This document shows positions 6,884 to 63,452 of a DNA stretch of 63,975 nt, piece after piece. This DNA comes from an uncultured Thermomicrobiales bacterium (GTDB lineage Bacteria; Chloroflexota; Chloroflexia; Thermomicrobiales; CADCWN01): the NCBI GenBank assembly GCA_902806415.1, contig CADCWN010000167.1, positions 1 to 63,975 on the forward strand, given 5' to 3'. The notes beneath the pieces are model-generated. The model had not been told where the DNA came from and ran no database searches. It saw nothing but the letters and a program-made list of their open reading frames with translations. The position numbers and the translations under genes are program-made. Numbering within the stretch: the first letter of the stretch is position 1; each line of letters opens with the position of its first letter.

Positions 6884-7062
6884 GTCGAAGGTCGAAGGTC
6901 GAAGGTCGAAAGGAGAATGGGAAAGGGGAGCGGGGTGGTGGCGGCCAGAATTTATGCGCGAGGCGCTAACGGCTTTGGCTGGTAGCTGAAGCCACCAGCC
7001 GCTGCCTCACACAGATGCTCTGCCGTTTTCCCCCCTTCGACTTTCGACCTTCGACCTTCGAC
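6884..7062. repeat. heptamer-array inverted repeat: (GTCGAAG)x3+GTCGAAAGG at 6884..6913 versus (CCTTCGA)-type array at 7033..7062
   Basis: Base-by-base pairing gives about 30 bp with 1 mismatch and 1 wobble, with a 119-nt spacer. The right arm ends 1 nt before the stop codon (7064..7066) of the upstream minus-strand gene. The spacer contains a 7-bp sub-hairpin GGCTGGT/ACCAGCC. Confidence 0.85.
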
Positions 7063-7063
7063 C

Positions 7064-8110
7064 TCACAACGTGATTGTTTTGCCTTCCTCGATCGAGCGA
7101 TAGGCCGCGAGGATGACCTGGAGGACGCGCCGACCGTCGCGGTGGTCCTGGATCGGGCGGCGACCGGTGGCGATGCTGTCGTAGAAGTGGTGGATCGTCG
7201 CGTCGAAGGTCTGCTGGTTGCCGACGGGCTCGACCGGGTAGGAGCGGCGCGACGGCTCGGCGAAGCCGCGCGGCTTCTCGTAGAGGTCGTACCGATTCCC
7301 GTACACCTCACCGCGCTCGCCGATCGCGTGGAACTTCGCATCGTTGGCGGGGAAGGCGAACCCCTCGCCGGTGAAGATCTGGCCGATCGCGCCGTTGGCG
7401 AATTTGACCATGACCAGCGCGGTGTCCTCGCCGTCCATCTGCGCCACGTAGGTGCCGCCCATCGCCGTCACCTCGACCGGCTCCGCGCCTGCAAGGTGGA
7501 GGAGGATGTAGGTCGGGTGATAGCCCTTGTCGATCAGCACCCCGCCGCCCATCGTCGCGCGGTTCGCTCGCCAGCCGACCATCATCGTCCCCTCCGCTGG
7601 GCGACCGGGCACCGCCGAGGCCGGGTAACCGGTCGGGAACTCGTGCGAGCGCAGGATGAACGGCGTGCCGAGCGCGCCACGGTCGAGCAACTCCTTCGCG
7701 CCCGCGACCGCCGGGTAGAAGAGCTCGTTGTGGCCGCTCATGTAGACGATCCCGGCGCGATCGACCGCCTCGACGATCCTGTCCGCCTCCTCGATCGCGA
7801 TGCACATCGGCTTCTCGCAGAGGATATGCTTTCCCGCCGCCGTCGCCGCCAGGATCGCGTCGGCGTGGAGGTGGTGCGGCAGGCAGATGTCGACCGCGTC
7901 GATCTCGGCCTCACGGATCAGTTGGTGGTAATCGGTGTAGATCGTTGGGGCCGCGCCATCGGTGGCGAAGAGTCCCGCCGCCTCCGTCGCCGCCGCCTCG
8001 ACCACATCCGACACCGCCGTCACGATCGCCTGGCCCGCCAGCTTCTGCCAGCCGGGCGCGTGCCGCTTCCGCGCGATATTGCCGCTACCGATCAGCCCGA
8101 CCTTGAGCAT
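7064..8110 (-). CDS. Gfo/Idh/MocA family oxidoreductase
   Basis: ORF 7064..8110, 348 aa. Motifs MLKVGLIGSGNIARKRH and HILCEKPM. Confidence 0.85.
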   Translation of the reverse strand: MLKVGLIGSGNIARKRHAPGWQKLAGQAIVTAVSDVVEAAATEAAGLFATDGAAPTIYTDYHQLIREAEIDAVDICLPHHLHADAILAATAAGKHILCEKPMCIAIEEADRIVEAVDRAGIVYMSGHNELFYPAVAGAKELLDRGALGTPFILRSHEFPTGYPASAVPGRPAEGTMMVGWRANRATMGGGVLIDKGYHPTYILLHLAGAEPVEVTAMGGTYVAQMDGEDTALVMVKFANGAIGQIFTGEGFAFPANDAKFHAIGERGEVYGNRYDLYEKPRGFAEPSRRSYPVEPVGNQQTFDATIHHFYDSIATGRRPIQDHRDGRRVLQVILAAYRSIEEGKTITL

Positions 8111-8248
8111 CGCCTCCCCCTTTGCCGTATCGTCCGACCACCGCCAGCGGCGTCCAATCGCTGCGTTCCGGCGGGCATACTAACACCGCCGGGCGCGGCG
8201 ATCACCTTCATTGGCCTGTTCTAGCGCGTTGTCCAGGCCGCAATCGCC

Positions 8249-10423
8249 GTGCTACAGTTGCCCGCCATGAACGGTCGAAACGCAGCGCTTGCCCACCCCG
8301 CAACGGAGCCTGCCCCAACCCCCGCCGCAGTCGGCACCGCCGCCCCGCTGGTGGCGGCGACAACGCGGGCGGGCAGGCGGGCGATCCTCCGCCTCGTTGG
8401 CCTCGCGGTCGCCTACGCGCTGCTGACAATCCTCTTCACCTGGCCGATCGCCACGAGCCTTGGCAACCAGATTCCCGCGTACGGCGACCCGGTCGATAGC
8501 GCCTGGCGGCTCGGCTGGGGGCAACACCAACTCCTGACCGACCCGCGCCACCTCTTCGACGCCAACGTCTTCTACCCCTACGCGCGCACTTATCTCTTCG
8601 ACGAATTGCTGCTCGGGATCGCCCTGATCACCCTGCCGCTGCGCCTCTTCACCGACAACCCGGTCGCGATCTACAACCTCGCCATGCTGAGCAGCTTCGT
8701 CCTCAGTGCGCTGGCGATGTACGCGCTCGCGCGACGCCTGCGCTGCCCGCCGGTCGCCGCGTTCGCCGCCGGGCTGGTCTACGCCTTCGCGCCGTTGCAC
8801 ATGGCCCACCTCACCCATCTCGGGCTGCTTTCCGGCCAGTATTTCCCGCTCGCCATCCTCCTGCTCGACCGGATCTTCGACCCCGACCTCGATACCTCGT
8901 CCCGCGCGCGCTGGCGTGACGCGGTCGGGCTGGCCATCGTGTTGGCCCTGCAAGCCCTCTCGGCGCAGTATTACGCCTTCTACCTGCTCTTCGTCGTCGG
9001 CGGCTTCGTCGGGCTGCGCCTCGTGCAAGAGGGAGTGCGGCGACGCTTCCCGCCGCCCGCCGTCTGGGCGCGGCTGCTGACCGCCGGGGCGTTGGCCACG
9101 ATCGTGGTCGCGCCGTTCTTCTTCGGCTACCGGACGGTGCAGGGGGATTACACGGTCGAGCGCTCGATCGCCCAGAATGCCTACTACTCCGCGAACCTCG
9201 CGTCGTTCTTCACCGCCGACGGGCAGAACTGGCTCTGGGGAATGCTCTCCGCGCCGTTGCGCGAGTTCGGGCGCTACACCTTCGAGCGCAATATGTTCCC
9301 CGGTCTGATCGCCCTCATTCTGGCGGCGGTCGGCACGATCGTGGGCCGACGACGACCGCTCGCGCAGTACTTCTTCCTGCTCGGCCTGGGCGCGGCGATC
9401 CTCTCGCTCGGCCCGAATCTCTACGTCACCGCCGATAATAAGAGCATCCTGTTCACGCGGATGCCGTACGGCTTCCTCTACTTTCACTTGCCCGGCTTCG
9501 ACTCGATGCGCGTCCCCGCCCGCTTCGGCATTCTCTTCGGTCTCAGCGTCGCCGGGCTCGCCGCGATCGGGCTGACCTGGATTCTCGGCAAGGCAACGGT
9601 ATGGCGTCCCACCCGCCCGTGCGCAGCTGGTCGCGCGCGGGCGGCGGCGCTGGCGGTGACGCTCATCGGCGGGATCGGCGTCGAGTCGCTGAATCGCCCG
9701 TACGAGCCGGTGCCGCTCGCCACCCGCGAGCAGGCACCGCCGGTCTACCGCTGGCTGGCGACGCAGCCCGATGCGGTCGTGATGGAGCTGCCGTTCGTCA
9801 TCCCCGATCACCCCGACCAGACGGGGATGCTCGGCGATCTCTACCAGTTCTACGCCCTCTATCACGGGCGACCGGTTGTCAACGGCTCGGCGAATGTCCT
9901 GCCGAAGGGCTATAAGGCGCTCTACTACGAGTTCCGCGACGGGCCGACGACGCGCGCCCTGAGCATCCTGCAAGGGCTCGGCGTGACCCATCTCGTCGTC
10001 CACTACGACGAGTTGAGCGGGGAGGTCGCCGCGCGGACGCGTGAGACCCTGGAAGGCGGCACCACCCAGGCGCGCGGCGAGATCGCGTTCGGCGGCGATG
10101 CCGTCTATCGGATCCCCCCGACCGAGCGGTTCGCGCAGTTGCGGTCGCTCATCTCGCGCGACGCCTCGATCTATCTGTCGCGCGGCGAGGACCCGACCGG
10201 GGCGTATGGGGGGATGCTCGGGCGCGTGCTGCTTGACAACCCGATCTACACCCGCGTGCGCGTCGAATTCGGCCGCGACTACATCAGCGACCTCGATCCC
10301 GCCGCGCGCTACGACTACGCGATCCTCTACCATTATGAGAACCCCGCCGACGTTGGCTTCGCCGGGATGCCGATCGTTTGGGAGGATGACGTCGTCCGCA
10401 TCTACGGGCGCAAGGCGACATAA
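8249..10423 (+). CDS. large polytopic membrane protein, putative GT-C-fold glycosyltransferase
   Basis: ORF 8249..10423, 724 aa. About 10 or more hydrophobic helices in the N-terminal two thirds (LVGLAVAYALLTILFTWPIA...), then a soluble C-terminal domain. No specific family motif that I can name. The start may be ATG 8267. Confidence 0.65.
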   Translation: MLQLPAMNGRNAALAHPATEPAPTPAAVGTAAPLVAATTRAGRRAILRLVGLAVAYALLTILFTWPIATSLGNQIPAYGDPVDSAWRLGWGQHQLLTDPRHLFDANVFYPYARTYLFDELLLGIALITLPLRLFTDNPVAIYNLAMLSSFVLSALAMYALARRLRCPPVAAFAAGLVYAFAPLHMAHLTHLGLLSGQYFPLAILLLDRIFDPDLDTSSRARWRDAVGLAIVLALQALSAQYYAFYLLFVVGGFVGLRLVQEGVRRRFPPPAVWARLLTAGALATIVVAPFFFGYRTVQGDYTVERSIAQNAYYSANLASFFTADGQNWLWGMLSAPLREFGRYTFERNMFPGLIALILAAVGTIVGRRRPLAQYFFLLGLGAAILSLGPNLYVTADNKSILFTRMPYGFLYFHLPGFDSMRVPARFGILFGLSVAGLAAIGLTWILGKATVWRPTRPCAAGRARAAALAVTLIGGIGVESLNRPYEPVPLATREQAPPVYRWLATQPDAVVMELPFVIPDHPDQTGMLGDLYQFYALYHGRPVVNGSANVLPKGYKALYYEFRDGPTTRALSILQGLGVTHLVVHYDELSGEVAARTRETLEGGTTQARGEIAFGGDAVYRIPPTERFAQLRSLISRDASIYLSRGEDPTGAYGGMLGRVLLDNPIYTRVRVEFGRDYISDLDPAARYDYAILYHYENPADVGFAGMPIVWEDDVVRIYGRKAT

Positions 10424-10527: not shown

Positions 10528-10610
10528 ACCCTCCCCTGAAGCGGGAGGGTGGAATTACAGCCTCCCACCTCGTGATATTTCCCCCCTCTCCTCGGATGGG
10601 GAGAGGGGGG
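10528..10610. repeat. two G/C-rich hairpins of the CCCTCCC/GGGAGGG and CCCCCCTCTCC/GGAGAGGGGGG type
   Basis: 10528..10550 is ACCCTCCC-7nt-GGGAGGGT. 10581..10610 is CCCCCCTCTCC-8nt-GGAGAGGGGGG (11 bp perfect). They lie in the convergent gap between 8249..10423(+) and 10647..11234(-). Confidence 0.8.
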
Positions 10611-10646
10611 CTGCCCGCAGGCGGCGGGGGTGAGGGCCGCGCCTCT

Positions 10647-11234
10647 TTACCAATTCCCCCGCCCAATATCGAACGGCTCTTTGCCTTCAATGACAGTGGC
10701 GAAGATCTCCGGCGAGTTGACCGGCGCGATCATCCCGTCGGTGTCGGTGTAGCGCGTGCCGGATGCGCCGAGATAGGTATGGGCGCGACCGAGCGGCACG
10801 AACCCGACTCGCCCGTAGAGCTTGCCCAATCGCGCGATGTCGGTGCAGAGGTAGGCGATGTCGCAGCCGCGTTGCCGTAGGGTCGCCATCGCCGCGCTGG
10901 TCGTCGCCGAGGCCACGCCGCGCCCGCGCCAATCGGCGCGCGTGGCGACGCCGCCCAGCCCGCCCAACTGGATTGCCCGCCCTCCGAAGGGGATCGCGCG
11001 CTGCAACAACTTGATCGCGCCGATCAGTTCCCCGCCAGTACGAGCCAGGATATAGCCGACCGCGTCATCGTCGCTGCAGAAGCGATCGTTGAGTTCGCGC
11101 CGATCCTCCTCCGGGGTGGCATAGCCGCTGAATGCGGCCTGCTCCAGGCTGTTGAATGCCGCGAATTCTTCCGGCGTCAGCCCGGTATGGCTGCTGATCC
11201 GGACTTCCTCGGGAGTGCTGGCTGTGTTACCCAT
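10647..11234 (-). CDS. GNAT family N-acetyltransferase
   Basis: ORF 10647..11234. The acetyl-CoA motif is VATRADWRGRGVASA (R/Q-x-x-G-x-G/A). Confidence 0.8.
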   Translation of the reverse strand: MGNTASTPEEVRISSHTGLTPEEFAAFNSLEQAAFSGYATPEEDRRELNDRFCSDDDAVGYILARTGGELIGAIKLLQRAIPFGGRAIQLGGLGGVATRADWRGRGVASATTSAAMATLRQRGCDIAYLCTDIARLGKLYGRVGFVPLGRAHTYLGASGTRYTDTDGMIAPVNSPEIFATVIEGKEPFDIGRGNW

Positions 11235-11253
11235 CGAAAGTTGTCCTTAACGT

Positions 11254-13152
11254 TCAGTCGCCCGGTGTCGCGCCGCCCGTCGGGAGGCAGCGACCGCCCG
11301 GCGGCAGATCGCGCATGTAGCGATAGACGCCGAAATAGCTCGGCGAATCCCAGTAGAGTTCGCGCAGGCGCAGCCGCCCGCTGAGTCGGAGGAGCGGTGC
11401 CGTCTCGCGGATGGGGAAACACTCATCGCGCATCATGATCACGATCGGCTGCGCCGCGACGTTCGCGGGGTCGATCGGCTCGGCGATCCGCGCGATCTCG
11501 GTGCCGGGGTCGTCCACGATCCGGTGCGGCACGCCGTCGAGCGTCAGCAAGATGTCGAGGATGTCGAGCGCCGTGGCCCCGTCCTTCAAATCGATCCTGA
11601 CGAAACGCGGACCGAGCAGGACTGGGGCGTCGGTCCCGCGCACGCTGTTGACGAAGCGCACCGTCTCCAGAAAAGCCGCGTTATCCGGATCAAGTCGGCT
11701 CTCATGGGTGTAGTAGCGGCGCAGCGGGATAATCGGATAGAGGACGAGGATGAGGATGAGGAGCGCGGGAACAAGCGATAGCGCGGAACGCGGAACGCGG
11801 AACGCGGAATTTGTCTCCTGTAGAGATCTGGGTCTTCGCGTCAACCACGTTCTCATTCCGCGTTCCGCGTTCCGCGTTCCGACTTCCACCAGCGCCAGTG
11901 CGCCCGCCGCCACGGCGATCATCAGCGGCGGCAGCAGGAAGGCGATGTAGCGCCCGGTCAGCAGGTAGCGGTCGCCGTCAATCCCGTAGGCGTGGTTGAA
12001 GTAGGGCATCGTCAGCGCCGTGCAGATCGTCGCCAGCAGCGGCAGCGGCTGGCCGCGCCGCGCCAGCACGATCAGCCCGAGGATCGCCAGGGCGACGACG
12101 ATCAGCATATACGGCGAGGTGAGGTAGTGCAGCGCCCGCTCCGGGGTCCGAAACGGGTTGCTAATCATCCGTACCAGCGCGTAGAGCAGGCTTCGCAAGT
12201 TGTAGACATAGGTATTGGCGGTCGGATCGGCGACGAAGGCGTAGTCGCGGCCCCGCGCCCGCCGGAAGCCGACCATCCCGTTCAGCAAGTTGGCGATCAG
12301 GACCGGGCTGTAGGCGAGGATCGTCGCGAACGGGGCCGGATACAGCCAGGGCGAGCGCATGAGCCCCCAGGAACGCTCGCGCCAGAGCGCAAATGCGAGC
12401 GCTCCGACCAGGGCCGGGGCCAGCACGATCGTCCCAACATGCGTCTGGAGCAGCAACCCGAAGCAGAAGCCGCAGAGGATCAGCCAGCGCGCGGCAGGCG
12501 TGAACGCGCCGGGTGGGGCGGGTGACAGCGCTGCCTCGTCTGCCCCCCCGTCGATCAGGGCGATCTGCGGCCGTGGTGGGGGCAACGCCCGTACGGCGCG
12601 CAAGACCGTGTAGAAGCAGAGGGTGGCGTAGAACGGGGTGGTGGAGTTCTCCCAGGCGACGTGGCTATTGACGACAATATGCTGCGGCAGGGTGGCGAGG
12701 AAAGCGGCCCCAAGCGCGCCGGGTCGCCAGCCGCCCAGTTCCCTGCCGATCAGATAGGTCATCGCGACGGTCAGCGCACCGATGATGCAGACGAGGGCGC
12801 GCGGCAAGGTCATCGAAGGGCCGAAGATCCAGAGGCAGAGGGCGAGGAGGTAGTGGTGCAGCGGGCCGAAATATTGCACTTGCGCCGTGAGCGGGAATGC
12901 CTCGCCGTTGTAGATGCGGAGCGCCCAGCGGATCTCGCCGATCTCGTCGGTGAAGTGGGGCAGGCGCAGCAGGTACGGCCAGCGGGTCAGCATCGCGAGG
13001 CCGAAGAGCGCCAGGATCAGCAGCGCCTCGGCTTCGACCGGGCGAACTCGCGAGAGCAGCGCGCGGAACCCTCGTCGTCGCTGCCGCGCCGGTGTGCGCT
13101 CGACCGTGCCACCCCGCTGGCTCTTCGGTTCCGCCGTTGTCGCCCCGACCAA
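11254..13152 (-). CDS. GT39/ArnT-like dolichyl/undecaprenyl-phosphate-sugar glycosyltransferase (GT-C)
   Basis: ORF 11254..13152, 632 aa. N-terminal PHFTDEIGEI...YFGPLHHYLL segment, many TM helices and a soluble C-terminal domain. It contains an in-frame heptamer hairpin element (see repeat 11782..11883). Confidence 0.8.
   Translation of the reverse strand: MVGATTAEPKSQRGGTVERTPARQRRRGFRALLSRVRPVEAEALLILALFGLAMLTRWPYLLRLPHFTDEIGEIRWALRIYNGEAFPLTAQVQYFGPLHHYLLALCLWIFGPSMTLPRALVCIIGALTVAMTYLIGRELGGWRPGALGAAFLATLPQHIVVNSHVAWENSTTPFYATLCFYTVLRAVRALPPPRPQIALIDGGADEAALSPAPPGAFTPAARWLILCGFCFGLLLQTHVGTIVLAPALVGALAFALWRERSWGLMRSPWLYPAPFATILAYSPVLIANLLNGMVGFRRARGRDYAFVADPTANTYVYNLRSLLYALVRMISNPFRTPERALHYLTSPYMLIVVALAILGLIVLARRGQPLPLLATICTALTMPYFNHAYGIDGDRYLLTGRYIAFLLPPLMIAVAAGALALVEVGTRNAERGMRTWLTRRPRSLQETNSAFRVPRSALSLVPALLILILVLYPIIPLRRYYTHESRLDPDNAAFLETVRFVNSVRGTDAPVLLGPRFVRIDLKDGATALDILDILLTLDGVPHRIVDDPGTEIARIAEPIDPANVAAQPIVIMMRDECFPIRETAPLLRLSGRLRLRELYWDSPSYFGVYRYMRDLPPGGRCLPTGGATPGD
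11782..11883. repeat. heptamer-array inverted repeat inside a CDS: (CGCGGAA)x4 versus (TTCCGCG)x3+TTCCGAC
   Basis: 27-bp perfect stem (11784..11810 with 11855..11881) and a 44-nt loop. The span is 102 nt = 34 codons and is open in the frame of the host gene. Confidence 0.9.
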
Positions 13153-15074: not shown

Positions 15075-16639
15075 TGAAATCGGAACTCGGCGGTCGCGGT
15101 CCACAAATGACCCCGCGCGAACGGTCGGGGCGGCTGCTCACCCCCGAGGCCCCCCGGGACCTCGCTCGCCCCGCCGCCGATTTTGATTGGCATCCGATCG
15201 CCGGTCGCGCGTCGGTGAAGCGCTGGCTCAACCTGGCGGTGGTCCTCTCGCGCGGGGCGGTCGACGCCCTGATGATCGTCGCCGCATTCCTGGCCGCCTA
15301 CCAATTGCGCGCCAGCATCGACCTCTTCAGCGCCTTCCAGGAGCCGAGCCGGACAACCTACGAGATCATGCTGGCGGTGGTTGTCGTGACCTTGCTGGTC
15401 ACGTTCAATCTCGTCGGGCTCTACAACTTACGGCGCGGCGTCTCGCGCGTCGACCAGTTTTACCGGGTCAGCGCCGCCGTCTCGATCGGCCTGGTCCTCT
15501 CGATCGCCCTCAACTCGATGCTCCTCGGGGATCGCTTCATCTACTCCCGCCAGATGCTGCTTATCGGTTGGCTCCTCTGTATCGCCCTGGTCACGGCGGG
15601 GCGCTTCGTGCATGGCGAACTCGTCGGGCAACTCCGCACACGGGCGGTTGCGCGCGATCGCCTGCTCGTCATCGGCGTGGGGAAGACCGGTCGTCTGGTC
15701 CTGGAGACGATCGCCCGCTCGCCCTGGCTCGGTTACGAGATCGTCTGCGTGCTGCGCCATGGCCAGAACGGGCAGGCCGCGCTCGGCGATGACACGCTCG
15801 ATGGGATTCCCATCCTCGGCGACGACACGCAACTCGCCGCCCTCACGAAGCAGTACAACATCGACGAAGTAATCATCGCGCTCACCGGCACCCCGCATGA
15901 AGAGGTCCTGACGCTGGCGCAAGGGCTGATCGAGCAGCCGGTGAATATCAAGGTCTACCCCGACACCTTCCAGTTGATCACCAACAACGAACTGAGTCTC
16001 GATGACCTCGGCGGTCTGCCGATGGTCAGCGTGCGCAATGTCGCGTTGCGCGGCTGGAATCGAGTCGTCAAGCGGGTGATGGACGTGGCCCTCAGCGTCG
16101 TTATTCTCATCCTGATTTCCCCGCTGGTTATCTTCCTCGCCGCGCTGATCAAGTTTTCCTCGCGTGGCCCGGTCTTCCATCTCCAGGAGCGTGTCGGCCA
16201 CGACGGTCGCTCGTTCCTCTGCATCAAGTTCCGCTCGATGACGGTCGGCGCGGAAGATTCCACCGGGCCGGTCTGGGCGCGACCGAACGACCCGCGGCGT
16301 ACCGTCCTCGGGCGCTTCATCCGGCGCTACTCCCTCGACGAGTTGCCGCAGTTCGTCAATGTCCTGATGGGCGAGATGAGTATCGTCGGCCCGCGCCCGG
16401 AGCGACCGCATTTTGTCGAGCAGTTCAGCCAGTCGATCCCCGGTTATGCCTACCGCCACCACGAGAAGGCCGGGATCACCGGCTGGGCGCAGGTGAATGG
16501 TCTGCGCGGCAACACCTCGATCGAGGAGCGCACGCGCTACGACCTCTACTACGTCGAGAACTGGTCCCCGCTCTTCGACATCAAGATCATCGTCAAGACG
16601 ATCTGGCTGGTGCTAAAACCGGATAATAACGCGTACTGA
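15074..16639 (+). CDS. polyprenyl-phosphate glycosyl-1-phosphate transferase (WbaP/exopolysaccharide sugar transferase family)
   Basis: ORF 15074..16639. N-terminal TM helices plus a central Rossmann-like region. The C-terminal segment reads RFIRRYSLDELPQFVNVLMGEMSIVGPRPERP. Its start overlaps the GT2 stop (TGATG). Confidence 0.85.
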   Translation: MKSELGGRGPQMTPRERSGRLLTPEAPRDLARPAADFDWHPIAGRASVKRWLNLAVVLSRGAVDALMIVAAFLAAYQLRASIDLFSAFQEPSRTTYEIMLAVVVVTLLVTFNLVGLYNLRRGVSRVDQFYRVSAAVSIGLVLSIALNSMLLGDRFIYSRQMLLIGWLLCIALVTAGRFVHGELVGQLRTRAVARDRLLVIGVGKTGRLVLETIARSPWLGYEIVCVLRHGQNGQAALGDDTLDGIPILGDDTQLAALTKQYNIDEVIIALTGTPHEEVLTLAQGLIEQPVNIKVYPDTFQLITNNELSLDDLGGLPMVSVRNVALRGWNRVVKRVMDVALSVVILILISPLVIFLAALIKFSSRGPVFHLQERVGHDGRSFLCIKFRSMTVGAEDSTGPVWARPNDPRRTVLGRFIRRYSLDELPQFVNVLMGEMSIVGPRPERPHFVEQFSQSIPGYAYRHHEKAGITGWAQVNGLRGNTSIEERTRYDLYYVENWSPLFDIKIIVKTIWLVLKPDNNAY

Positions 16640-18666: not shown

Positions 18667-20586
18667 ATGACGATTCTGACGCCCGAGCTAATCGCCGATG
18701 GTCTGCTGCCGGGCGACCCGCAACTCGCGCCGGATGGCCGCGCCGTCGCCTATACCGTCGCGCCGGCCGGCCGGCGCGAGCGGGAGCCGCAGGGCGCGAT
18801 CTGGCTCGCCGCCACCGATCGCGCCACGCCGCCGCGTCGCCTCACCGCCGGTGTCGCCAACGACACGATACCGCGCTGGTCCCCCGACGGGCGGTCGCTC
18901 TACTTCCTCTCCGACCGGGCGAAACGGGGGGAGGCGCAGTTGTATCGCCTGCCCCTTGGCGGTGGCGAGGCCGAGGCGCTGACCGATTGGCGGGGCGGTC
19001 TCGCCGAGTTCGCCCCGCTAGCCGACGGGCGGACGGTGGTGCTCCTCGCCAAAGATCCGCCGACAGACGAGGACGAACGCCGCGAGCGCGAGGGCGACGA
19101 CGCCAGGGTGTGGGGCGAGCGCTGGCCGTCGCGGCGACTGCGCCTGCTCGACCTCGACTCGCGCGCCGTTCGCACGATCGACGCGCTCGGCGAATGCCAC
19201 GTCAGCGCTTTCGCTCCCGCGCCCGATGGCGCGCGGATCGCCGTCGCGACCTGGCCGAACCCCGATCTCGACAACGGGGCGTTCCCGACACCGCTCCACC
19301 TGGTGGATGTCGAGAGTGGCGCGGCCCACAAACTCTGCGACCTGCCGACCGGTGGCAACAACCTCACCTGGGACCGATCCGGCGAGTCTATCGCCTACAT
19401 CGCCCGCGCGGCGGAGGGCGGAGCCTCGGGGAATGGTCTGTTCCTGCTGCGCGTCGCCGAGGCCGCGCCGCGCCGCCTGGTTCCCGACCTCCCGGCCTGC
19501 CCACTCGCGCTCTGCCAAGGGGCCGGGAGCGGGATCCTGCTGACGGTCGCCACGGGCCTCGACACGACCCTCCAGCGTCTCGACCCGGAGACCGACGAAT
19601 TAACCGAACTCCTCCGCCTCCCCGGCGAATTGGCTTCCCCGGCCGTCAGCGCCGATGGGCGGTTGGTCGTGGCGCTCCGCAGCACGCCCGATAGCCCGCT
19701 CAATGTCTGGGCGGGGCCACCTGATGGCCCGCTCGCGCGGCTGACCGATCTGCGGCCCGAACTGCGCGCGGTCGCCTGGGGGTCGCAGGAACGCCTCGCC
19801 TGGCGGGCGGCCGACGGCCTCGACCTCGATGGCCTGCTCATCCTGCCGCCCGGCAAGGGGCGCACCGATGGGCCGTTCCCGCTGATTGTCGTCGTCCACG
19901 GTGGCCCGTACGGGCGTTTCGCCGATGACTTCCAACTCGGCAGCGGGCGACCATCCGGCCAGTGGCTCGCCGTCGGCGGGTACGCCGCCTTCCTGCCCAA
20001 CGCGCGCGGCGGTGTCGGGCATGGGGCCGCCTTCGCCGCGTCGGTCGCGGGGCGAGTTGGCCTGGAGGACTGGGGGGACATCGTCGCGGGCCTCGATCGG
20101 CTGGTTGAAGAGGGGGTCGCCGATCCCGCTCGGCTCGGGATCGGTGGGTGGAGTCAGGGTGGCTTCATGACCGCCTGGGCGGTCGGGCACACCGATCGGT
20201 TCCGTTGCGGCGTGATGGGCGCGGGCGTCAGCGATTGGGGGATGATGGTCGCCGAGAGCGACCTGCCGACCTTCGAGTCGGGGCTCGGCGGTAGCACCGG
20301 CTGGGAAGGCCCGGGACCGCACCCGCACGACCAGGTCAGCCCGATCTCCTTCGTCCACCGCGTCAAGACGCCGGTCCTGATCCTGCACGGGGAGTGCGAC
20401 GAGCGTGTCCCGGTCAGCCAGGCACAGTTCTTCGCGCGCGGCCTGCGCCACTACGGGGTGGAGCACGAGCTCGTCGTCTACCCGCGCGAGCCGCACGGCC
20501 TCCGCGAGCGGGCGCACCAAATCGACGCGCTGCGGCGTCTCCGCGCTTGGTTTGATCGCTGGCTCGGCGGGGGTCGTGAGTCGTGA
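18667..20586 (+). CDS. S9 family serine peptidase (prolyl oligopeptidase/acylaminoacyl-peptidase type)
   Basis: ORF 18652..20586, started at MTILTPE. N-terminal propeller-like repeats. The catalytic motifs are GIGGWSQGG (Ser), LHGECDERVP (Asp) and YPREPHG (His). Confidence 0.85.
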   Translation: MTILTPELIADGLLPGDPQLAPDGRAVAYTVAPAGRREREPQGAIWLAATDRATPPRRLTAGVANDTIPRWSPDGRSLYFLSDRAKRGEAQLYRLPLGGGEAEALTDWRGGLAEFAPLADGRTVVLLAKDPPTDEDERREREGDDARVWGERWPSRRLRLLDLDSRAVRTIDALGECHVSAFAPAPDGARIAVATWPNPDLDNGAFPTPLHLVDVESGAAHKLCDLPTGGNNLTWDRSGESIAYIARAAEGGASGNGLFLLRVAEAAPRRLVPDLPACPLALCQGAGSGILLTVATGLDTTLQRLDPETDELTELLRLPGELASPAVSADGRLVVALRSTPDSPLNVWAGPPDGPLARLTDLRPELRAVAWGSQERLAWRAADGLDLDGLLILPPGKGRTDGPFPLIVVVHGGPYGRFADDFQLGSGRPSGQWLAVGGYAAFLPNARGGVGHGAAFAASVAGRVGLEDWGDIVAGLDRLVEEGVADPARLGIGGWSQGGFMTAWAVGHTDRFRCGVMGAGVSDWGMMVAESDLPTFESGLGGSTGWEGPGPHPHDQVSPISFVHRVKTPVLILHGECDERVPVSQAQFFARGLRHYGVEHELVVYPREPHGLRERAHQIDALRRLRAWFDRWLGGGRES

Positions 20587-20593
20587 GTCGTGG
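20573..20593 (+). repeat. tandem heptamers (GTCGTGA)(GTCGTGA)(GTCGTGG) spanning the peptidase stop codon
   Basis: The last codons GGT CGT GAG TCG TGA (G R E S stop) are made of the array. No complementary arm was found nearby. Confidence 0.8.
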
Positions 20594-23089: not shown

Positions 23090-23416
23090 ATGGCACCGAA
23101 CCGCCGACCGAACTATCAGCAGAAGAAGAGTAACATCCGCCCCGGTACGCCGGGGGCACCGGGCACGCCGGGAGCGGTGGTCGCCGCGCCGGTTCGCAAG
23201 TCAAAGAGCGACGCGATCACCGTCGATGGCACCGTGGTCGACGCGCTGCCGAACGCGATGTTCACCGTCGAGCTCGACAGCGGCCACAAGGTGCTGAGCA
23301 CCCTCTGCGGCAAGATGCGGACCCGCTACATCCGCGTCGCCCAGGGTGACAAGGTCACCGTCGAACTCTCGCCGTATGATCTGACGCGCGGACGGATCAC
23401 CTTCCGCTATCGCTAA
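23090..23416 (+). CDS. infA: translation initiation factor IF-1 with an N-terminal extension of about 36 aa
   Basis: ORF 23072..23416. ATG 23090 follows AGGAGGAAGC. The core [66 protein letters not shown] is canonical IF-1. It is preceded by the basic, PG-rich [29 protein letters not shown].... Confidence 0.85.
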
Positions 23417-23517
23417 CAGGTCGAAGGCCCGAGGTCGAAGGTCGAAAATCGCTTACTTGCAGGCACAATGTTGGTAAGCGGTGACCTTCGACCTTCAGAC
23501 CTTCGACTCTCGACTTC
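23417..23517 (+). repeat. imperfect heptamer-array hairpin, (GGTCGAA)-type arm versus (CCTTCGA)-type arm, directly after the infA stop
   Basis: Arm 1 is about 23419..23456 and arm 2 about 23474..23514. The inner perfect stem is CGCTTAC/GTAAGCG (23450..23456 with 23474..23480). The outer TTCGACC units pair with bulges. Confidence 0.7.
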
Positions 23518-23709
23518 TCTCGTTTCGTTCCTTCCGGGCGCGACTCGCGCCCGTGGGATAGCCCGGTTGTGATCGCGCTAGTCGAACGCGCGCAGTGGTT
23601 TTTGGAGTGGACTCCCCGCCCTTCCTGCTCCGCTCATCCCGTCCCCCGACTAGGGAAAGGTCACCCGAATCGTCCATCTGTTGCAGTGTTAATCCCGAAA
23701 GGTGTCGGA

Positions 23710-24099
23710 ATGAGCTACCAGGACAAGACCATCAACTGCCGCGACTGCGGCCAGGACTTCGTGTTCACCGCCGGTGAGCAGGAATATTATGCGGAGAAGG
23801 GCTTCACCAACGAGCCCCGACGTTGCCCCGACTGTCGCCGCGCGCGCAAGGCGCAGCAGGGTGGCGGCGGCAGCTACTCCAGCGGCGGCGGCGACTATAG
23901 CGGCGGCAGCAGCTACGGCGGCGGCGGTGGCTACGACCGCGCCCCGCGCCAGATGTTCGCCACGATCTGCAGCCAGTGCGGCAAGGAGACCCAGGTCCCC
24001 TTCCAGCCGCGCGGCGACAAGCCGGTCTACTGCTCCGACTGCTTCGCCGAGCGGCGGCAGTCCAGCGGCGGCGGCTACGGCAGCCGCGACCGCTACTAA
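23710..24099 (+). CDS. double zinc-ribbon protein with Gly/Ser/Tyr-rich linker
   Basis: ORF 23569..24099, started at MSYQDKTINCRDCGQDF (ATG 23710). The N-terminal ribbon is CRDCG...CPDCR. The C-terminal ribbon CSQCGKETQVPFQPRGDKPVYCSDCF is the same motif as the helicase tail. Confidence 0.7.
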   Translation: MSYQDKTINCRDCGQDFVFTAGEQEYYAEKGFTNEPRRCPDCRRARKAQQGGGGSYSSGGGDYSGGSSYGGGGGYDRAPRQMFATICSQCGKETQVPFQPRGDKPVYCSDCFAERRQSSGGGYGSRDRY

Positions 24100-41230: not shown

Positions 41231-41243
41231 GGTTGGCTCCGGG

Positions 41244-47613: not shown

Positions 47614-47630
47614 CAGCGGATTCGCGTGGT

Positions 47631-47665
47631 GAGTGCCGAGTGAAAAGTGCCGAGTGCCAAGTACA
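47631..47665. repeat. tandem heptamers (GAGTGCC)(GAGTGAA)(AAGTGCC)(GAGTGCC)(AAGTACA)
   Basis: Lies 18 nt upstream of the LLM gene ATG (minus strand). It is not complementary to the arrays at 47832..47884. Confidence 0.75.
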
Positions 47666-47751
47666 TTAGGGTGGTGCTCCTGGTGGTGTGGGTGGGAGAC
47701 GGCCCTCACCCCCAGCTCGCTCCGGATGAACCGGACAATGTGCGCTCGCCA

Positions 47752-47779
47752 CCCCCTCTCCCGATTCCAGGAGAGGGGG
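47752..47779. repeat. CCCCCTCTCC/GGAGAGGGGG hairpin
   Basis: 10-bp perfect stem with an 8-nt loop. Same family as 10581..10610 and 18616..18644. Confidence 0.8.
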
Positions 47780-47831
47780 AACAAGCGCGGTGCTTATGAC
47801 CGAATGCGGCGACTGGGTTAGCGTTTTACGA

Positions 47832-47884
47832 ACTACGGACTACGGGTGCCTTCTCACGACTCACGACTCACGACTCACGACTCG
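47832..47884. repeat. two adjacent heptamer arrays: (ACTACGG)x2 at 47832..47845 and (CTCACGA)x4 at 47853..47880 (plus a partial fifth unit)
   Basis: In the sense (minus) direction the sequence reads TAG-CGAG-(TCGTGAG)x4, starting directly at the rhodanese stop codon (47885..47887). Confidence 0.85.
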
Positions 47885-48814
47885 CTACGGCTCCTCCCCC
47901 TGTCGCGCTGGCAGATTCGGGTCGTTGCCCCATTCGTTCCAAGAGCCGTCGTAGTTACGACCGGGACGACCGAGGCGGTCGAGGGCGAAGAGGACGGTGG
48001 TGGCGGCGACGCCGCCGTTGCAGTAGGCGACGACCGGGCGGTCGGGCTGCTCGTCCAGCCCCGCCTCAGCCATAATCTGGCGCAGTTCCTCGTCGGATTT
48101 CCAGGTTCCCGTTGGCGTGAAGAGTTGGGCGTTGGGGACGAGGATCGCGCCGGGGATGTGGCCGCCCTGCGCGCCGCGCGCGATCGCGCCGGTGTACTGC
48201 TCACGGTCGCGCGCGTCCACGATGATCGCATCGCCGAGTTCGCTGTGTTCCAGGACTTCCTGCGCGGTCACGCGACCCTGCCTCCCGGCCTGCGGGGTGA
48301 AGGTCGCGGCGGGGTAGGTCGGCACCCCGGTCGAGGTCGGGCGACCTTCTGCCGACCATTTGTTCCAGCCCCCATCGAGGACCGCGGTGTTGCCATGTCC
48401 GTAATAGCCGAGCGCCCACCACATCCGCGTGGCGAACTGCATCCCCTTGTGGTCGTAGACGACGACGTAGCTGTCGTCGCCGATCCCGAGTTGGTTCATC
48501 AGCGCGGCGAACGCCTCGGGCGTGGCGAGTTGCGCCGGCACCGGGTCGTCCGGGTTGATGATGTCTTGCGTCCAATCGACGTAGACGGCGCCGGGGATAT
48601 GGCCGGCGTCGTACTCCTCCCGCGCGCCGAGATACTGCGCCTCTTGCTTGCCGCCTTCGAGCAGCATTGTTTTGACATAACCGCGCATATCGATGATCCG
48701 CAGGGCCGGGTGGCCGAGGTGCTCAGCGAGCCACTCGGTCCCGATCAGGGTGCCGGGCCAGTCGAGCGTGTCGGTGGTCGGGGTGGCGTTGGTGGTACTC
48801 ATCGGGGCCTCCAT
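47885..48814 (-). CDS. two-domain rhodanese (thiosulfate/3-mercaptopyruvate sulfurtransferase)
   Basis: ORF 47885..48814. AGHIPGAVYVDW is in domain 1. GHIPGAILVP and the active-site loop AYCNGGVAATT are in domain 2. Confidence 0.85.
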   Translation of the reverse strand: MEAPMSTTNATPTTDTLDWPGTLIGTEWLAEHLGHPALRIIDMRGYVKTMLLEGGKQEAQYLGAREEYDAGHIPGAVYVDWTQDIINPDDPVPAQLATPEAFAALMNQLGIGDDSYVVVYDHKGMQFATRMWWALGYYGHGNTAVLDGGWNKWSAEGRPTSTGVPTYPAATFTPQAGRQGRVTAQEVLEHSELGDAIIVDARDREQYTGAIARGAQGGHIPGAILVPNAQLFTPTGTWKSDEELRQIMAEAGLDEQPDRPVVAYCNGGVAATTVLFALDRLGRPGRNYDGSWNEWGNDPNLPARQGEEP

Positions 48815-52981: not shown

Positions 52982-54877
52982 TTGCTGAAATTTGAACGCA
53001 GCGACGAGACGCAGGGTCAGCTCCCCATCGGCACCCAGGGCTACGATAGCAATCAAGGCTACGAGCGCAAGGGGTACGAAGAGGAGGTCACCGATAATCT
53101 CGCCGATCTGCTCAATTCGCTCCCGCCGAAGCTCGCGGAGCGCCTGCGCCAGCAGGATAACCGCGCGCTGATCGAACTGGTCTTCGATCTCGGGCGGAAG
53201 CCCGAAGCCCGCTACGATTGGGGCGAACTCGAACTCGATACCGCCGACATTACCCGCGACGATCTCGAATATGTCGCGGGGCGGATCGGCTCGTTCGGCG
53301 AGGACAACCGCGCCGGGATCGAGCGGACCCTGCACCGGATCTCGGCGATCCGCAACCGCTCGGGCGCGATCGTCGGCTTAACCTGCCGGATCGGGCGCGC
53401 GGTCTTCGGGACGATCGCGATCATCCAGGATCTCGTCGAGTCGGGCGAGAGTATCCTGATCCTCGGGCGACCGGGGGTCGGCAAGACGACGATCCTGCGC
53501 GAGACGGCACGCGTGCTGGCCGACTCGCTCCGCAAGCGGGTGGTTGTCGTCGACACTAGTAACGAGATCGCCGGGGACGGCGACATCCCGCACCCCGCGA
53601 TCGGGCGGGCGCGGCGGATGCAGGTGCCGCGCCCGTCCGAGCAGCACGGGGTGATGATCGAGGCGGTCGAGAATCACATGCCGCAGGTGATCGTCATCGA
53701 CGAGATCGGCACCGAGCTCGAGGCGCAGGCCGCGCGCACGATCGCCGAGCGCGGCGTGCAGCTGATCGGCACGGCGCACGGCAACTCGCTCGAGAACCTG
53801 ATGCTCAACCCGACCCTCTCCGACCTGATCGGCGGGATCCAATCGGTCACCCTCTCCGATGAGGAGGCGCGGCGACGCGGCACCCAGAAATCGGTGCTGG
53901 AACGCAAGGCCCCGCCGACCTTCACGATGCTGGTGGAGATCCAGGATCGCGATCGGGTGGCGCTCCACCGCGACATCGGCGAGGCCGTCGATGGGCTCCT
54001 GCGCGGCAGCCCGCTCGGGACGGAGGTGCGCCACCGCCGCGACGACGGGGAGATCGAGTCCTGGCACGATGATGGGCCGCAGCCGGGCGGCGACAGTTCG
54101 CGCCAGGGGCAGCGTCGCCCGAGCGATCGGTCGCAGACGGGGGGGCGCGGCCCGCGACGCGGCCCGCGCGGGGGTGCCGGGACCGCGCCGCAGAGTCCGA
54201 CGATGCTCCGCGCGGTCGATGTCGCGTCTGCAGCGCAGCCGGGGGCGGTGGAGCAGGTGCCCGGTGCCGATGGCCCGGCGGAGGCACCGCCCGCCGGGCT
54301 GCCGAAGGGTCGGGGTACGGTGGGAAAGCCGGTTCGGTTCTACCCGTTCGGGGTGAGCCGCAATCGGCTGGAACAGGCGATCATCGCGCTCGGTGTCAGC
54401 GCGACAATCACCCGCGATCTGCGCGACGCCGATCTCGTCATGACGCTGAAAAACTACTATCGGCGTCGCCCGCAGCAACTCCAGGAGGCGGAGTCGCTGG
54501 GCAAGCCGGTCTACGTGCTGCGGAGCAACACCGGCACGCAGATGGAGACGGTGCTGGCCGGGATCTTCGGCCAGCCCAAGGAGAAGGGGTCTGGGGGACG
54601 CTCCGCCGCTGGCTCTTCACCCGCCAGGGCGGCGGTCGCTGAAAGTGCGGAAGACGAAGAGCCGTTCTCCGAGGACATGATTACCAACGCACTTTTCGAG
54701 GCCGAGACGGCGGCGACGACGGTGATGGATGTCTCCCGCGCAATCTCGCTGATGCCGCAGACTTCCTATATCCGACGCCTCCAGCATCAGGTGGCCGAGC
54801 GGTATAATCTCCTCTCGCGCAGCCGTGGCAAAGAGCCGTTCCGACGTGTCGAGATCATGCCGGGTGGCAAACGCTAG
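52982..54877 (+). CDS. Ycf45/SpoIIIAA-like AAA ATPase with C-terminal R3H domain
   Basis: ORF 52982..54877 with a TTG start after GAGGTGAGGA. Motifs [19 protein letters not shown] and IGTAHG. A long Arg/Gly-rich linker precedes a C-terminal R3H-like segment ([28 protein letters not shown]). Confidence 0.8.
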
Positions 54878-55585
54878 GTGAACGCGGAACGCGGAGCGCG
54901 GAACGCGGAATTTGGGTTGGGAGAAGTCGGGACGACCGGGCTTCCCTCCGATGCCGTTCCGCGTTTCCTCGCCTTTGAGGGGCCGGAGGGCGGTGGTAAA
55001 TCGACCCAGGTACGCGCGGTGGCGGCGGCACTAGCGGCGGCGGGTGTGCCACACACGGTGACGCGCGAACCTGGTGGCACGGTGATCGGCGAGCAGATCC
55101 GCGCGGTTTTGCTCGGCATCGAGAACCGCGCGATGCTGCCGGAGACCGAAGTCCTGTTGCTACTGGCGGCGCGGGCGCAACACGTCGCCGAAGTGATCGC
55201 GCCCGCGCTGGCGCGGGGCGAGGTCGTCCTCTGCGACCGTTTCGCCGGCGCGACCTTCGCCTATCAGGGCTATGGTCGCGGCTTACCGCTGGCGGAGTTG
55301 CGCCGGTTGCAACGATTCGCGGCGGGCGATCTGGTCCCGGACCTGACGCTGCTCTTCGATCTCCCCGCCGAGATCGGCCTGGGTCGCCGTCACGCCGCAG
55401 GCGAGGTGAATCGCCTCGACGCGGCGGGACTGGCCTTCCATCGTGCCGTGCGCGACGGCTATCTCGCCCTCGCGCGGGAAGAGGCGGCGCGGTGGTGTAT
55501 CATCGATGCCAGCCGCCCGCTCGATGCGGTGACGACGGAAACACTGTCGATTGTCGGTGCGTGGCTGGCTGCAACGCGCGGGTAA
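54878..55585 (+). CDS. tmk: dTMP (thymidylate) kinase
   Basis: ORF 54878..55585. Motifs FLAFEGPEGGGKST, DRF and the lid region. Possible starts are GTG 54878 (directly after the upstream TAG) or TTG 54917. The 5-prime end is built from a heptamer element. Confidence 0.85.
   Translation: MNAERGARNAEFGLGEVGTTGLPSDAVPRFLAFEGPEGGGKSTQVRAVAAALAAAGVPHTVTREPGGTVIGEQIRAVLLGIENRAMLPETEVLLLLAARAQHVAEVIAPALARGEVVLCDRFAGATFAYQGYGRGLPLAELRRLQRFAAGDLVPDLTLLFDLPAEIGLGRRHAAGEVNRLDAAGLAFHRAVRDGYLALAREEAARWCIIDASRPLDAVTTETLSIVGAWLAATRG
54880..54968 (+). repeat. heptamer array (GAACGCG)x4 (54880..54910) with a shorter complementary arm CCGTTCCGCGTTTCC (54954..54968) inside the tmk 5-prime end
   Basis: Same unit as the intragenic element at 11782. 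The right arm encodes AVPRF, just before the P-loop strand. Confidence 0.8.
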
Positions 55586-62889: not shown

Positions 62890-62965
62890 TAGTCGAGCGT
62901 TGACGTGATCGGCCGACGACCCGATGACCCGTAATGATCCCGGCGTACAGAGGAGGTATCCCAGC

Positions 62966-63331
62966 ATGGCAAAGAGCAAGATCCTGGTTGTGGACGACAG
63001 CGCGACCGAGATGGTCCTGATTGCCAACCCCCTGCGCGCGGAGGGGTACGATGTGCTCACGGCGAAGAATGGCGAGGAAGCACTGCGCAGCCTCGACCAG
63101 AACCGCCCCGACCTGATCATTCTGGACGTGGTGATGCCCGGCAAGAACGGTTTCCAGCTCTGTCGGCAGATTCGCAACGACGCGCGCTTCGGCTCGCTGC
63201 CGGTGATCCTCCTGACCTCTAAGAGCCAGGAGGCGGACAAGTTCTGGGGGATGAAGCAGGGGGCGACCGCCTACATGACGAAGCCGTTCGTGACCTCAAC
63301 CCTGCTCGCGACGATCCGTCAGCACGTTTAG
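62966..63331 (+). CDS. CheY-like response regulator (PilH-type single receiver)
   Basis: ORF 62924..63331, started at MAKSKILVVDDS (ATG 62966 after GAGGAGG). Motifs LIILDVVMPGKNGFQLC and TKPF. Confidence 0.85.
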   Translation: MAKSKILVVDDSATEMVLIANPLRAEGYDVLTAKNGEEALRSLDQNRPDLIILDVVMPGKNGFQLCRQIRNDARFGSLPVILLTSKSQEADKFWGMKQGATAYMTKPFVTSTLLATIRQHV

Positions 63332-63334
63332 CGA

Positions 63335-63452
63335 GCAGTCGGCAGTCCGTGGTCCGTAGTCCGTAGAATCTGCTTGCGAGGCATCGCGCTGGCGGCAAAC
63401 GCTGGAGCAGCAGCGAGGCTCTACGGACTACGGACCACGGACTGCCGACTGC
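63335..63452 (+). repeat. perfect 33-bp hairpin built from GTCCGTA/GTCCGTG/GCAGTCG-type heptamers
   Basis: 63335..63367 pairs without a mismatch with 63420..63452 (checked base by base), with a 52-nt loop. It starts 4 nt after stop TAG (63329..63331) and ends 22 nt before the next ATG (63475). Confidence 0.95.

Follow-up and report, generated by a model that had tools for sequence, protein, structure and literature searches.

A 63,975-nt stretch of contig CADCWN010000167.1 from an uncultured Thermomicrobiales bacterium (hereafter the window; 68% GC, 14% non-coding) contains arrays of tandemly repeated 7-nt units, several of which face their own reverse complement and could fold into long hairpins directly behind the stop codon of a gene. 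The question raised by this locus is how such arrays arise, what keeps their two arms complementary, and whether the hairpins have a function. The proteins encoded in the window are closest to those of Thermomicrobiales metagenome-assembled genomes (MAGs) from the phylum Chloroflexota, e.g. SMAG_U7152, at 84–96% identity; loci fetched for comparison are cited by their L numbers. A first-pass annotation, made from the letters alone, had presented the hairpins as an undescribed class. The explanation that we favor, with a probability of about 0.55, is that replication slippage and arm-to-arm correction act at operon-junction stem-loops which, by analogy with known elements, would exert their effect on the mRNA.

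Arrays were called with Tandem Repeats Finder and a purpose-written scanner; together with reading of the sequence, these confirmed all the array coordinates given earlier. Nine perfect period-7 runs of at least three copies are present in the window, compared with none in 100 dinucleotide-preserving shuffles, and the periods 5, 6 and 8–11 yield zero or one such run each. Eight of the 10 arrays are located in the non-coding 14% of the sequence. An assembly artefact was ruled out, as the orthologous positions carry arrays in independent assemblies from ENA, JGI and NCBI. Arrays, hairpins and their attachment to stop codons are genuine and not random. The window has 0.156 arrays per kb and seven close relatives, obtained through their proteins, have 0.125, compared with only 0.0028 in 153 other loci (2.5 Mb); a high density is therefore a property of the lineage.

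The nine stop codons previously reported to adjoin arrays (7064, 20586, 23416, 36163, 42710, 44643, 47885, 54877 and 63331) are the ends of real open reading frames (ORFs), which display a strong third-position GC and codon-usage signal; according to Pfam scans, the genes flanking the arrays are ordinary in kind. The hairpin at 11782/11856 is not located at a gene end but in frame inside the ORF 11254–13152 (minus strand). A pool of 74 arrays was drawn from the window and from loci of STL-CHL24, SMAG_U7152 and other Thermomicrobiales. A same-strand stop codon is found within −25 to +10 nt of the array start for 28 of the 74 on the purine-rich strand and for three of the 74 on the pyrimidine-rich strand, so that the anticipated enrichment by stop codon and strand is indeed present. 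Within −40 to +60 nt, 32 of the pooled arrays have such a stop at offsets from −23 to +37 nt (14 of the 32 within ±3 nt), and frequently the stop codon is inside the array. At the other end of the spacer, 17 of the 74 arrays terminate 9–31 nt before a same-strand start codon when read on the pyrimidine-rich strand, and two of the 74 when read on the purine-rich strand.

In summary, the coding strand carries a purine-rich array that adjoins or covers the stop codon of gene A, and a pyrimidine-rich array follows that ends 9–31 nt upstream of the start of gene B, so that the Shine-Dalgarno (SD) site still fits in. If these arrays are complementary, as they are at most loci of the window, the hairpin takes up everything between the stop codon and the SD site, and the whole spacer folds into a very stable rod with outer stems of 18–35 bp. 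In the spacers 41231–41528 and 47614–47884 the purine-rich array at the stop and the pyrimidine-rich array before the start have differing units and do not pair. In the relatives, spacers without a hairpin are 35–50 nt long and those with one 100–270 nt. The pooled arrays occur at 1.47 per kb in co-directional spacers, 0.79 in convergent spacers, 0.39 in divergent spacers and 0.02 in coding sequence; within the window, 10 of 38 co-directional spacers contain arrays, compared with none of five convergent and none of six divergent ones. The depletion from divergent spacers and the placement in operons favor a link to transcription or translation, but are no proof of it.

One such link would be transcription termination, the hairpins serving as intrinsic terminators or attenuators that dispense with a U-tract, or as elements that modulate Rho. 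Stable GC-rich stems downstream of genes and the enrichment in co-directional and convergent spacers are in line with this role, and unpaired pyrimidine-rich 3′ arms could provide Rho loading sites. However, reading of the window sequence revealed no T-run after any 3′ arm, stems of 18–35 bp and loops of 40–120 nt are unlike those of intrinsic terminators, the convergent spacers of the window are free of arrays, the SD site of the next gene follows immediately downstream, and one hairpin lies within coding sequence. The relatives L286–L289 (FabI 89–91% identical) possess a canonical terminator approximately 30–80 nt past the fabI stop, with a 10–12 bp GC stem followed by TTTTT, and a different downstream gene; thus the clade does use U-tract terminators, unlike the heptamer hairpins. 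We consider a terminator role very unlikely, and membership in the intrinsic terminator class was rejected on account of the missing U-tract and the excessive length of stems and loops.

At least eight arrays had been counted as paired. We count seven clear pairs, in which the reverse-complement partner is 41–120 nt away and the stems of 18–33 bp are 87–100% complementary: 6884/7064 (33 nt, 91%), 11784/11881 (27 nt, 100%), 23418/23507 (22 Watson-Crick pairs, two mismatches and one gap), 36164/36280 (30 nt, 87%, all mismatches except one being G:U), 42604/42711 (29 nt, 90%), 44544/44639 (18 nt, 100%) and 63335/63452 (33 nt, 100%, though its four units differ among themselves). The claim that the arrays form hairpins stands for these seven pairs and fails for the array at 54880, which has approximately 12 bp of pairing only, and for those at 20573, 41243, 41530, 47631 and 47827–47883, which are unpaired. 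Predicted RNA folds of six paired loci gave z-scores from −4.6 to −12.5, with none of 200 shuffles equally stable; the fold of 6884/7064 has −104 kcal/mol (no shuffle control). Among 49 heptamer-array hairpins in the window and all fetched loci, the 5′ arm is purine-rich in 40, pyrimidine-rich in one and neutral in eight. Because the 5′ arm of a hairpin is identical on both strands, its polarity is silent on which strand is transcribed, and the purine-rich 5′ arm was dismissed as a marker of the transcribed strand; it is a property of the palindrome. In an Rfam scan of the window only tRNA-Sec reached the gathering score; the hairpins matched eukaryotic microRNA-precursor models below threshold, as generic hairpins do, and no Rfam family could be assigned to them at the gathering score.

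The junction between fabI and the adenosyltransferase gene was compared in about 17 relatives. The unit of the hairpin is GAGTCGT in the window, GAGTGCT in L082, GTACGAA in L085, TAAGGCG in L290, TAGGGGA in L291 and of the GGGGCGT type in L293. In L083 the hairpin consists of 9–10-nt repeats, L084, L284, L285 and L294 (FabI 94–96% identical) have plain GC hairpins with mutually different stems, and in L081 a 35-nt spacer contains neither hairpin nor array. At the junction between two genes of the GFO_IDH_MocA family, the GAAGGTC hairpin of the window corresponds to GARTGCG in L279 and L282 and to non-repeat GC hairpins in L280, L281 and L283. After the response-regulator gene, the unit GTAGTCC is kept in L001 with a different loop. 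The rhodanese spacer can be aligned between the window and L280/L281, where the internal units change jointly from GAGTCGT to GCGTCGT. At several loci the stop codon is part of a diverged first unit: TAA-GGCG (3.4 copies) in L290, TAG-GGGA (2.4 copies) in L291, TGACGAA ahead of GTACGAA in L085, and, at two loci of the window, TGAACGG ahead of GGAACGG and TAGTCGT ahead of GAGTCGT. The many forms found at the fabI junction, together with a hairpin kept in a coding linker, are unusually clear evidence that position and pairing persist and the sequence does not.

The hairpin in coding sequence provides a further comparison. It is flanked on both sides by good coding signal within the ORF 11254–13152 (minus strand), which encodes a GT39/ArnT-like glycosyltransferase. 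The translated product, ..RNAERG..(loop)..FRVPRSA.., lies in a length-variable linker of approximately 40 residues (..RNAERG..FRVPRSALSLVP..) between membrane segments. Homologues exist in a long form with the hairpin segment and in a form that is approximately 15 residues shorter and does not have it; P0023, which is only 54–56% identical, has nearly the same arm peptides. The segment is degenerate in L280 and L282 and missing from L283. In L279 both arms have changed, to GARTGCG/CGCAYTC as opposed to GAACGCG/CGCGTTC in the window, which, together with the exact mirroring of unit variants at 63335/63452, upholds the claim that the arms change in concert. The alignment of orthologous spacers likewise agrees with the earlier expectation of selection on structure or of a templated mechanism: the relatives keep a hairpin at the junction while its unit is replaced. 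L279 also harbors two GARTGCG hairpins 4 kb apart, one at the GFO-GFO junction and one in the GT39 coding sequence (16045–16157 and 11250–11400). Their orthologues in the window have the differing units GAAGGTC and GAACGCG, which hints at an exchange of units between loci.

In the explanation based on slippage and correction, replication slippage would duplicate the first unconstrained 7-mer past an ORF, which at several loci would be the stop codon plus 4 nt, and further slippage would homogenize the copies. Selection for pairing may uphold the complementarity of the arms, as may intrastrand template switching (quasi-palindrome correction), alone or in combination. Individual arrays would appear, change and vanish quickly, while a hairpin at the junction would last. 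Most likely, the 7-nt periodicity is a mutational signature and not itself a functional feature; as summarized in PMC4679880 and PMC4692102, Mrazek (2007) found heptamers to be the most abundant class of long simple repeats in bacteria and ascribed them to polymerase slippage. The putative site of action, proposed by analogy, is the polycistronic mRNA. A strong helix 0–6 nt past the stop codon could slow the terminating ribosome and lower the output of the upstream cistron, as do repetitive extragenic palindromic sequences (REPs) of Escherichia coli, which, in the account that PMC12306157 gives of Liang, Rudd & Deutscher (2015), stall ribosomes and reduce translation when located within 15 nt of the stop codon. 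The helix could also block 3′-exonucleases, and its base would bring together the stop codon of gene A and the SD site of gene B. For hairpins of STRR (short tandemly repeated repetitive) sequences in cyanobacteria, transcript stabilization or translational coupling has been proposed (Devine et al. 2009, PMC2670836).

Several observations weigh against this explanation, beginning with those that concern RNA. In 13 stems oriented by their flanking genes we counted 374 Watson-Crick pairs, 24 G:U, 16 A:C, 11 transversions and 13 gaps, and with this number of stems the excess of G:U over A:C in the sense strand is not significant. Fold energies of whole spacers gave no guidance on sense against antisense. 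Comparison of the fold energies of sense and antisense hairpins gave a mixed picture, in which some, namely the hairpins at 36164/36280 and 42604/42711 and the fabI hairpins of L082 and L085, are clearly more stable in the sense strand and others are not. These counts and energies thus do not establish that selection acts on the RNA.

These results bear on a rival possibility, namely that the hairpins are a functionless by-product, neutral or selfish, of slippage and quasi-palindrome template switching in the unconstrained sequence after stop codons and before SD sites. Besides the insignificant wobble bias, it gains from the rapid loss or replacement of arrays even between relatives with 93–96% amino-acid identity, from close relatives such as L081 that manage with array-free spacers of 35–50 nt, from the occurrence of similar arrays in many phyla among the matches listed, and from the rank of heptamers, in the same secondary accounts of bacterial repeats, as the commonest long simple-sequence-repeat class. 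Its weakness is that it does not readily accommodate the perfect stems (27/27, 33/33 and 18/18) with mirrored variant units, a hairpin kept at the same junction across many relatives despite the turnover of its sequence, the retention of the coding-linker hairpin in several lineages, the strict polarity, and the approximately fourfold lower frequency of arrays in divergent than in co-directional spacers, both of which are non-coding. We regard a purely neutral origin as possible, but doubtful.

A further difficulty for slippage and correction is that the array at the rhodanese junction is conserved even though it is unpaired both in the window and in L280; hence pairing cannot be the whole explanation. 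Such conservation of unpaired stop-adjacent arrays, as well as the strictness of polarity and placement, could indicate binding sites of a repeat-recognizing protein on RNA or DNA, for which the 7-nt period would be the protein register and pairing would be secondary; the TAACTGA repeats of Beggiatoaceae and the heptamers of Nostoc have prompted similar proposals. The diversity of the units, at least seven in the 64-kb window and at least six at one orthologous junction, argues against sequence-specific recognition, and such a protein appears highly improbable.

The last difficulty lies in the recurrence of units and in the polarity. The statement that each locus has a different unit was overstated, since a small repertoire recurs across loci: GAGTCGT at four loci, GAAGGTC at three, and GAACGCG and GTAGTCC at two each. 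Eleven pairs of loci coincide in their unit, compared with approximately 0.08 expected under independent choice from approximately 1170 unit classes. At the same time, loop alignments of same-unit hairpins in the window showed unrelated loops and interiors without excess similarity. Because units recur at several loci and the loops are unrelated, purely local, independent slippage is insufficient. In addition, the strong polarity is left unexplained by slippage and correction.

Recurring units would be expected if the hairpins were mobile palindromes of the REP/REPIN type, MITEs (miniature inverted-repeat transposable elements) or relatives of Rickettsia palindromic elements (RPEs), copied by a transposase such as the REP-associated tyrosine transposase (RAYT) and inserted after stop codons and occasionally in frame. 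A limited repertoire recurs within one genome also in STL-CHL24, which has 14 distinct units in 125 kb, and in SMAG_U7152; L279 has one unit at two loci, as described above; and the distribution after genes matches that of REPs. Moreover, the in-frame hairpin of the glycosyltransferase gene resembles RPEs, which reportedly (Ogata et al. 2000) are palindromic DNA inserted in frame in protein genes and translated as an extra peptide segment, and are said to be dispersed 100–150 bp copies of one sequence family. Unlike an RPE, however, this hairpin consists of heptamer arrays, and hairpins with the same unit are dissimilar in their loops and interiors. We saw neither a conserved head sequence nor a terminal inverted repeat nor a target duplication, and the identity of the first unit with the local stop codon at orthologous junctions speaks for an origin in situ. 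Classification as MITE or RPE was rejected because of the unrelated interiors, in spite of the in-frame occurrence, and classification as REP because there is no family-wide conserved palindrome, in spite of the matching position. An apparent similarity of same-unit loops in other phyla proved to be residual array sequence. No RAYT (Y1 transposase) was among the 20 window proteins scanned with Pfam, the window covering only 64 kb of the genome. Overall, mobility appears unlikely.

A more speculative alternative, which we also hold to be improbable, is that an unrecognized, widespread activity writes and maintains the arrays, e.g. a hairpin-directed or templated system of repeat copying or gene conversion. 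If it exists, it would place purine-rich arrays at stop codons, put the complementary arrays ahead of start codons, and carry units of a limited repertoire, specific to the genome, from locus to locus while leaving the interiors uncopied. It would then account for recurrent units at unlinked loci with unrelated loops, for the strict polarity and the nucleotide-precise phasing with the stop codon, and for an architecture shared by Chloroflexota, Gemmatimonadota, Armatimonadota, xanthomonads and cyanobacteria.

The view that no such class has been described does not hold, as the stop-anchored polar heptamer architecture is already published. Rehm et al. (2015, PMC4692102) described GGGAATC arrays in Xanthomonas campestris and Xanthomonas axonopodis and GGGGA(C/T)T arrays in Anabaena PCC 7120. 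Each Xanthomonas genome has 70–75 convergent inverted pairs of heptamer arrays capable of forming stem-loops, and 89–93% of the arrays are intergenic, the spacers of co-directional ORFs being their main location; Anabaena has few paired arrays. In all three genomes the arrays, read by their G-rich strand, are on the coding strand at distances of 0–50 bp from a stop codon, some of them overlapping the stop, and upstream of ORFs they are on the non-coding strand. Between the two Xanthomonas species, array position is conserved and array length is variable (PMC4692102). The window shares with these genomes the tandem heptamers of at least two units, the intergenic bias, the convergent pairs, and the polarity and placement. 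It differs in that at least seven units occur in 64 kb, instead of one consensus unit per genome, and in that the published units were chosen and interpreted as G-quadruplex-forming, whereas GAGTCGT, GAAGGTC, GAGTGAC and GTAGTCC cannot form this structure; a GGG(G) tract is present only in GAACGGG and is missing from these four and from GAACGCG. The phylum (Chloroflexota), the replacement of units at orthologous junctions and the in-frame coding hairpin set the window apart as well.

Cyanobacterial STRR sequences were reportedly described by Mazel (1990). According to the available text of Devine et al. (2009, PMC2670836), 7-bp STRR hairpins are usual between hupS and hupL in filamentous cyanobacteria and occur there in several of them, which is a second precedent. 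They resemble the elements of the window in having several heptamer families per genome, in forming intercistronic hairpins in operons and in occupying the same junction across species; they differ in stemming from AT-rich filamentous cyanobacteria with few named units (STRR1–3) per genome, and in that text we found no quantified rule of stop-codon phasing or polarity. Geobacter metallireducens also has paired heptamer arrays (Aklujkar et al. 2009, PMC2700814). The heptamers GGGACCG and MTYCTGA are repeated four to five times in tandem there, at tens of intergenic and intragenic sites, one class being paired on opposite strands. Unlike in the window, these units are fixed and are read as binding sites of a global regulator, with no relation to stop codons reported (PMC2700814). 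Stop-proximal REPs and bacterial interspersed mosaic elements (BIMEs) provide the best functional analogy, since, to go by the overview in PMC12306157, they too are located after genes and within operons, are rare in promoter regions, lie in large part within 15 nt of the stop codon, and stabilize mRNA. In contrast to REPs, which are imperfect palindromes of 20–40 nt with a conserved family sequence (e.g. a 5′ GTAG head) and an associated RAYT, the stems here are arrays of varying units with no conserved head sequence.

New in the present case are the phylum; the large number of units in one genome, the majority of which are unable to form a G-quadruplex; the presence of many units at one junction across relatives; the stop codon as a seed unit; and the maintenance of a hairpin in coding sequence. 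The architecture is thus tied neither to Xanthomonas and cyanobacteria nor to G-quadruplex-forming units. This removes the G-quadruplex as a general explanation and leaves as common features the period of 7, the purine-to-pyrimidine polarity and the placement at stop and start codons. Arrays and array hairpins of this kind were also found among the matches listed in loci from several other soil phyla. Taxa with (GAGTCGT)n include Gemmatimonadota, Armatimonadota, Vulcanimicrobiota, Bacteroidota, Halomonas and Streptomyces, some of them showing pairs of purine-rich and pyrimidine-rich arrays; among isolates, Halomonas urumqiensis and Hymenobacter rubripertinctus carry such arrays. Since stop codons lie inside them, arrays define the ends of ORFs, and they can add translated segments to proteins.

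The individual loci of the window are as follows. Hairpin 1 (6884–7066, minus strand; unit GAAGGTC) is located between two GFO_IDH_MocA genes. Its 5′ arm runs from the stop codon TGA 7064–7066 of the first (7064 to 7032) and its 3′ arm (6921 to 6884) ends 31 nt before the ATG 6852 of the second, with the SD sequence GGAGAG between; the 110-nt interior contains a 12-bp inner hairpin. Hairpin 2 (11763–11895, minus strand; unit GAACGCG) is the perfect 27-bp stem in frame in the GT39/PMT_2 ORF 11254–13152. At 20573–20592 (plus strand) an unpaired purine-rich array of 2.9 copies of GTCGTGA (z −0.6) contains the stop TGA 20584–20586 of a peptidase S9 gene. Hairpin 4 (23414–23507, plus strand; unit GAAGGTC; z −7.1) starts 2 nt past the infA stop TAA 23414–23416 and has a 10-bp inner hairpin in its loop. 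Directly past the stop TAG 36161–36163 of a PsbP-like gene lies hairpin 5 (36161–36280, plus strand; 4.9 copies of GAGTGAC; z −8.2), which has five G:U pairs in the sense strand and whose 3′ arm ends 10 nt before the ATG 36291 of a cupin gene. An exact 50-mer of this hairpin found no match in the genome contig collection.

Two unpaired arrays on the minus strand delimit one spacer. The purine-rich one at 41529–41546 (GAGTCGC GAGTCGT) includes the stop TGA 41529–41531 of an Amidohydro_2 gene; its orthologue in L084 consists of four copies of GTCGTGR with the stop inside the array. The pyrimidine-rich one at 41243–41263 reads as three copies of TTCGACC in the sense direction and ends 12 nt before the start 41230, followed by the SD sequence GGAG. 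Between these two arrays we observed an inverted repeat of 39 nt, perfect and with 50 nt separating its arms (41337–41464), both arms of which terminate in a small palindrome (GGGCGTAT-GCA-ATACGCCC). It has no second copy in the window or the fetched loci, and Rfam gave only sub-threshold matches to microRNA hairpins.

The first unit of hairpin 7 (42604–42712, minus strand; unit GAACGGG; z −6.2), TGAACGG, includes the stop TGA 42710–42712, and its 3′ arm extends as far as the region where the next Amidohydro_2 gene starts, the exact start codon being uncertain. Similarly, the first unit TAGTCGT of hairpin 8 (44544–44645, minus strand; unit GAGTCGT, perfect 18-bp stem; z −4.6) includes the fabI stop TAG 44643–44645, and the 3′ arm ends 13 nt before the ATG 44530 of the cob(I)alamin adenosyltransferase gene, with the SD sequence GGGAG between. 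The rhodanese spacer holds two unpaired purine-rich arrays at 47827–47887 (minus strand), 4.4 copies of GAGTCGT and then 2.7 copies of GTAGTCC, 1 nt past the rhodanese stop TAG 47885–47887; the stop-adjacent array region at 47853 is less structured than its shuffles (z +2.5). At the other end of this spacer, an unpaired pyrimidine-rich array (47631–47662, minus strand; in the sense direction 4.6 copies of GGCACTC with 72% matches) stops 17 nt short of ATG 47613, the conserved start codon of a gene for a luciferase-like monooxygenase. The same spacer contains one of the two window copies of a dispersed REP-like element (47703–47780 and 10583–10640) with the structure CCCCTCTCC-N8-GGAGAGGGG followed by GGGGTGAGGG. 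L280/L281 have conserved the copy that lies between the rhodanese and monooxygenase genes; elements resembling it are found downstream of heptamer arrays in the STL-CHL24 loci L171, L193 and L263, and L034 has four copies.

At 54875–54910 (plus strand), 4.4 copies of GAACGCG form a purine-rich array 2 nt past the stop TAG 54875–54877 of an R3H/AAA gene; its limited pairing is with the N-terminal coding sequence of tmk (z −0.7). The stop abuts a GTG (54878) in frame with tmk (TAGGTG), in the window as well as in L081. If this GTG is the start codon, the array may be a translated N-terminal extension of thymidylate kinase. Hairpin 11 (63329–63452, plus strand; z −12.5) has a perfect 33-bp stem of GTAGTCC-type units that starts 3 nt past the response-regulator stop TAG 63329–63331, and its 3′ arm ends 22 nt before the ATG 63475 of cheW, with the SD sequence GGAGG between.

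Units of other lengths were noticed in the fetched loci. L083 has a hairpin of CACAAAGGC-type units at 10790–10960, of the 8–10-nt class and in the same kind of position, and L197, from a Chthonomonadaceae MAG, contains the octamer series GTGTTCAG and CCCCTTCT at 2500–2600 and 3870–3960. Units of 8–10 nt at comparable positions indicate that the period of 7 is dominant, not exclusive. In the examined MAGs, among the matches listed, arrays are often situated at contig ends; for (GAGTCGT)n this is very often so (L162, L163, L170, L192, L194, L195, L209 and L210, and further L219, L220, L224, L229, L233 and L234), and multi-copy heptamer arrays may be what breaks short-read assemblies there. Elsewhere in the window, the tRNA-Sec gene (27993–28083, minus strand; Rfam RF01852, 71.5 bits) implies that this organism synthesizes selenoproteins. 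A tandem repeat of 18/21 nt (GGCGGCGGCAGCAACTACA-like, three to four copies; 23863–23935) inside the ORF 23686–24099 for a treble-clef zinc-finger protein (zf_Tbcl) is presumably a Gly/Ser/Tyr-rich coding repeat.

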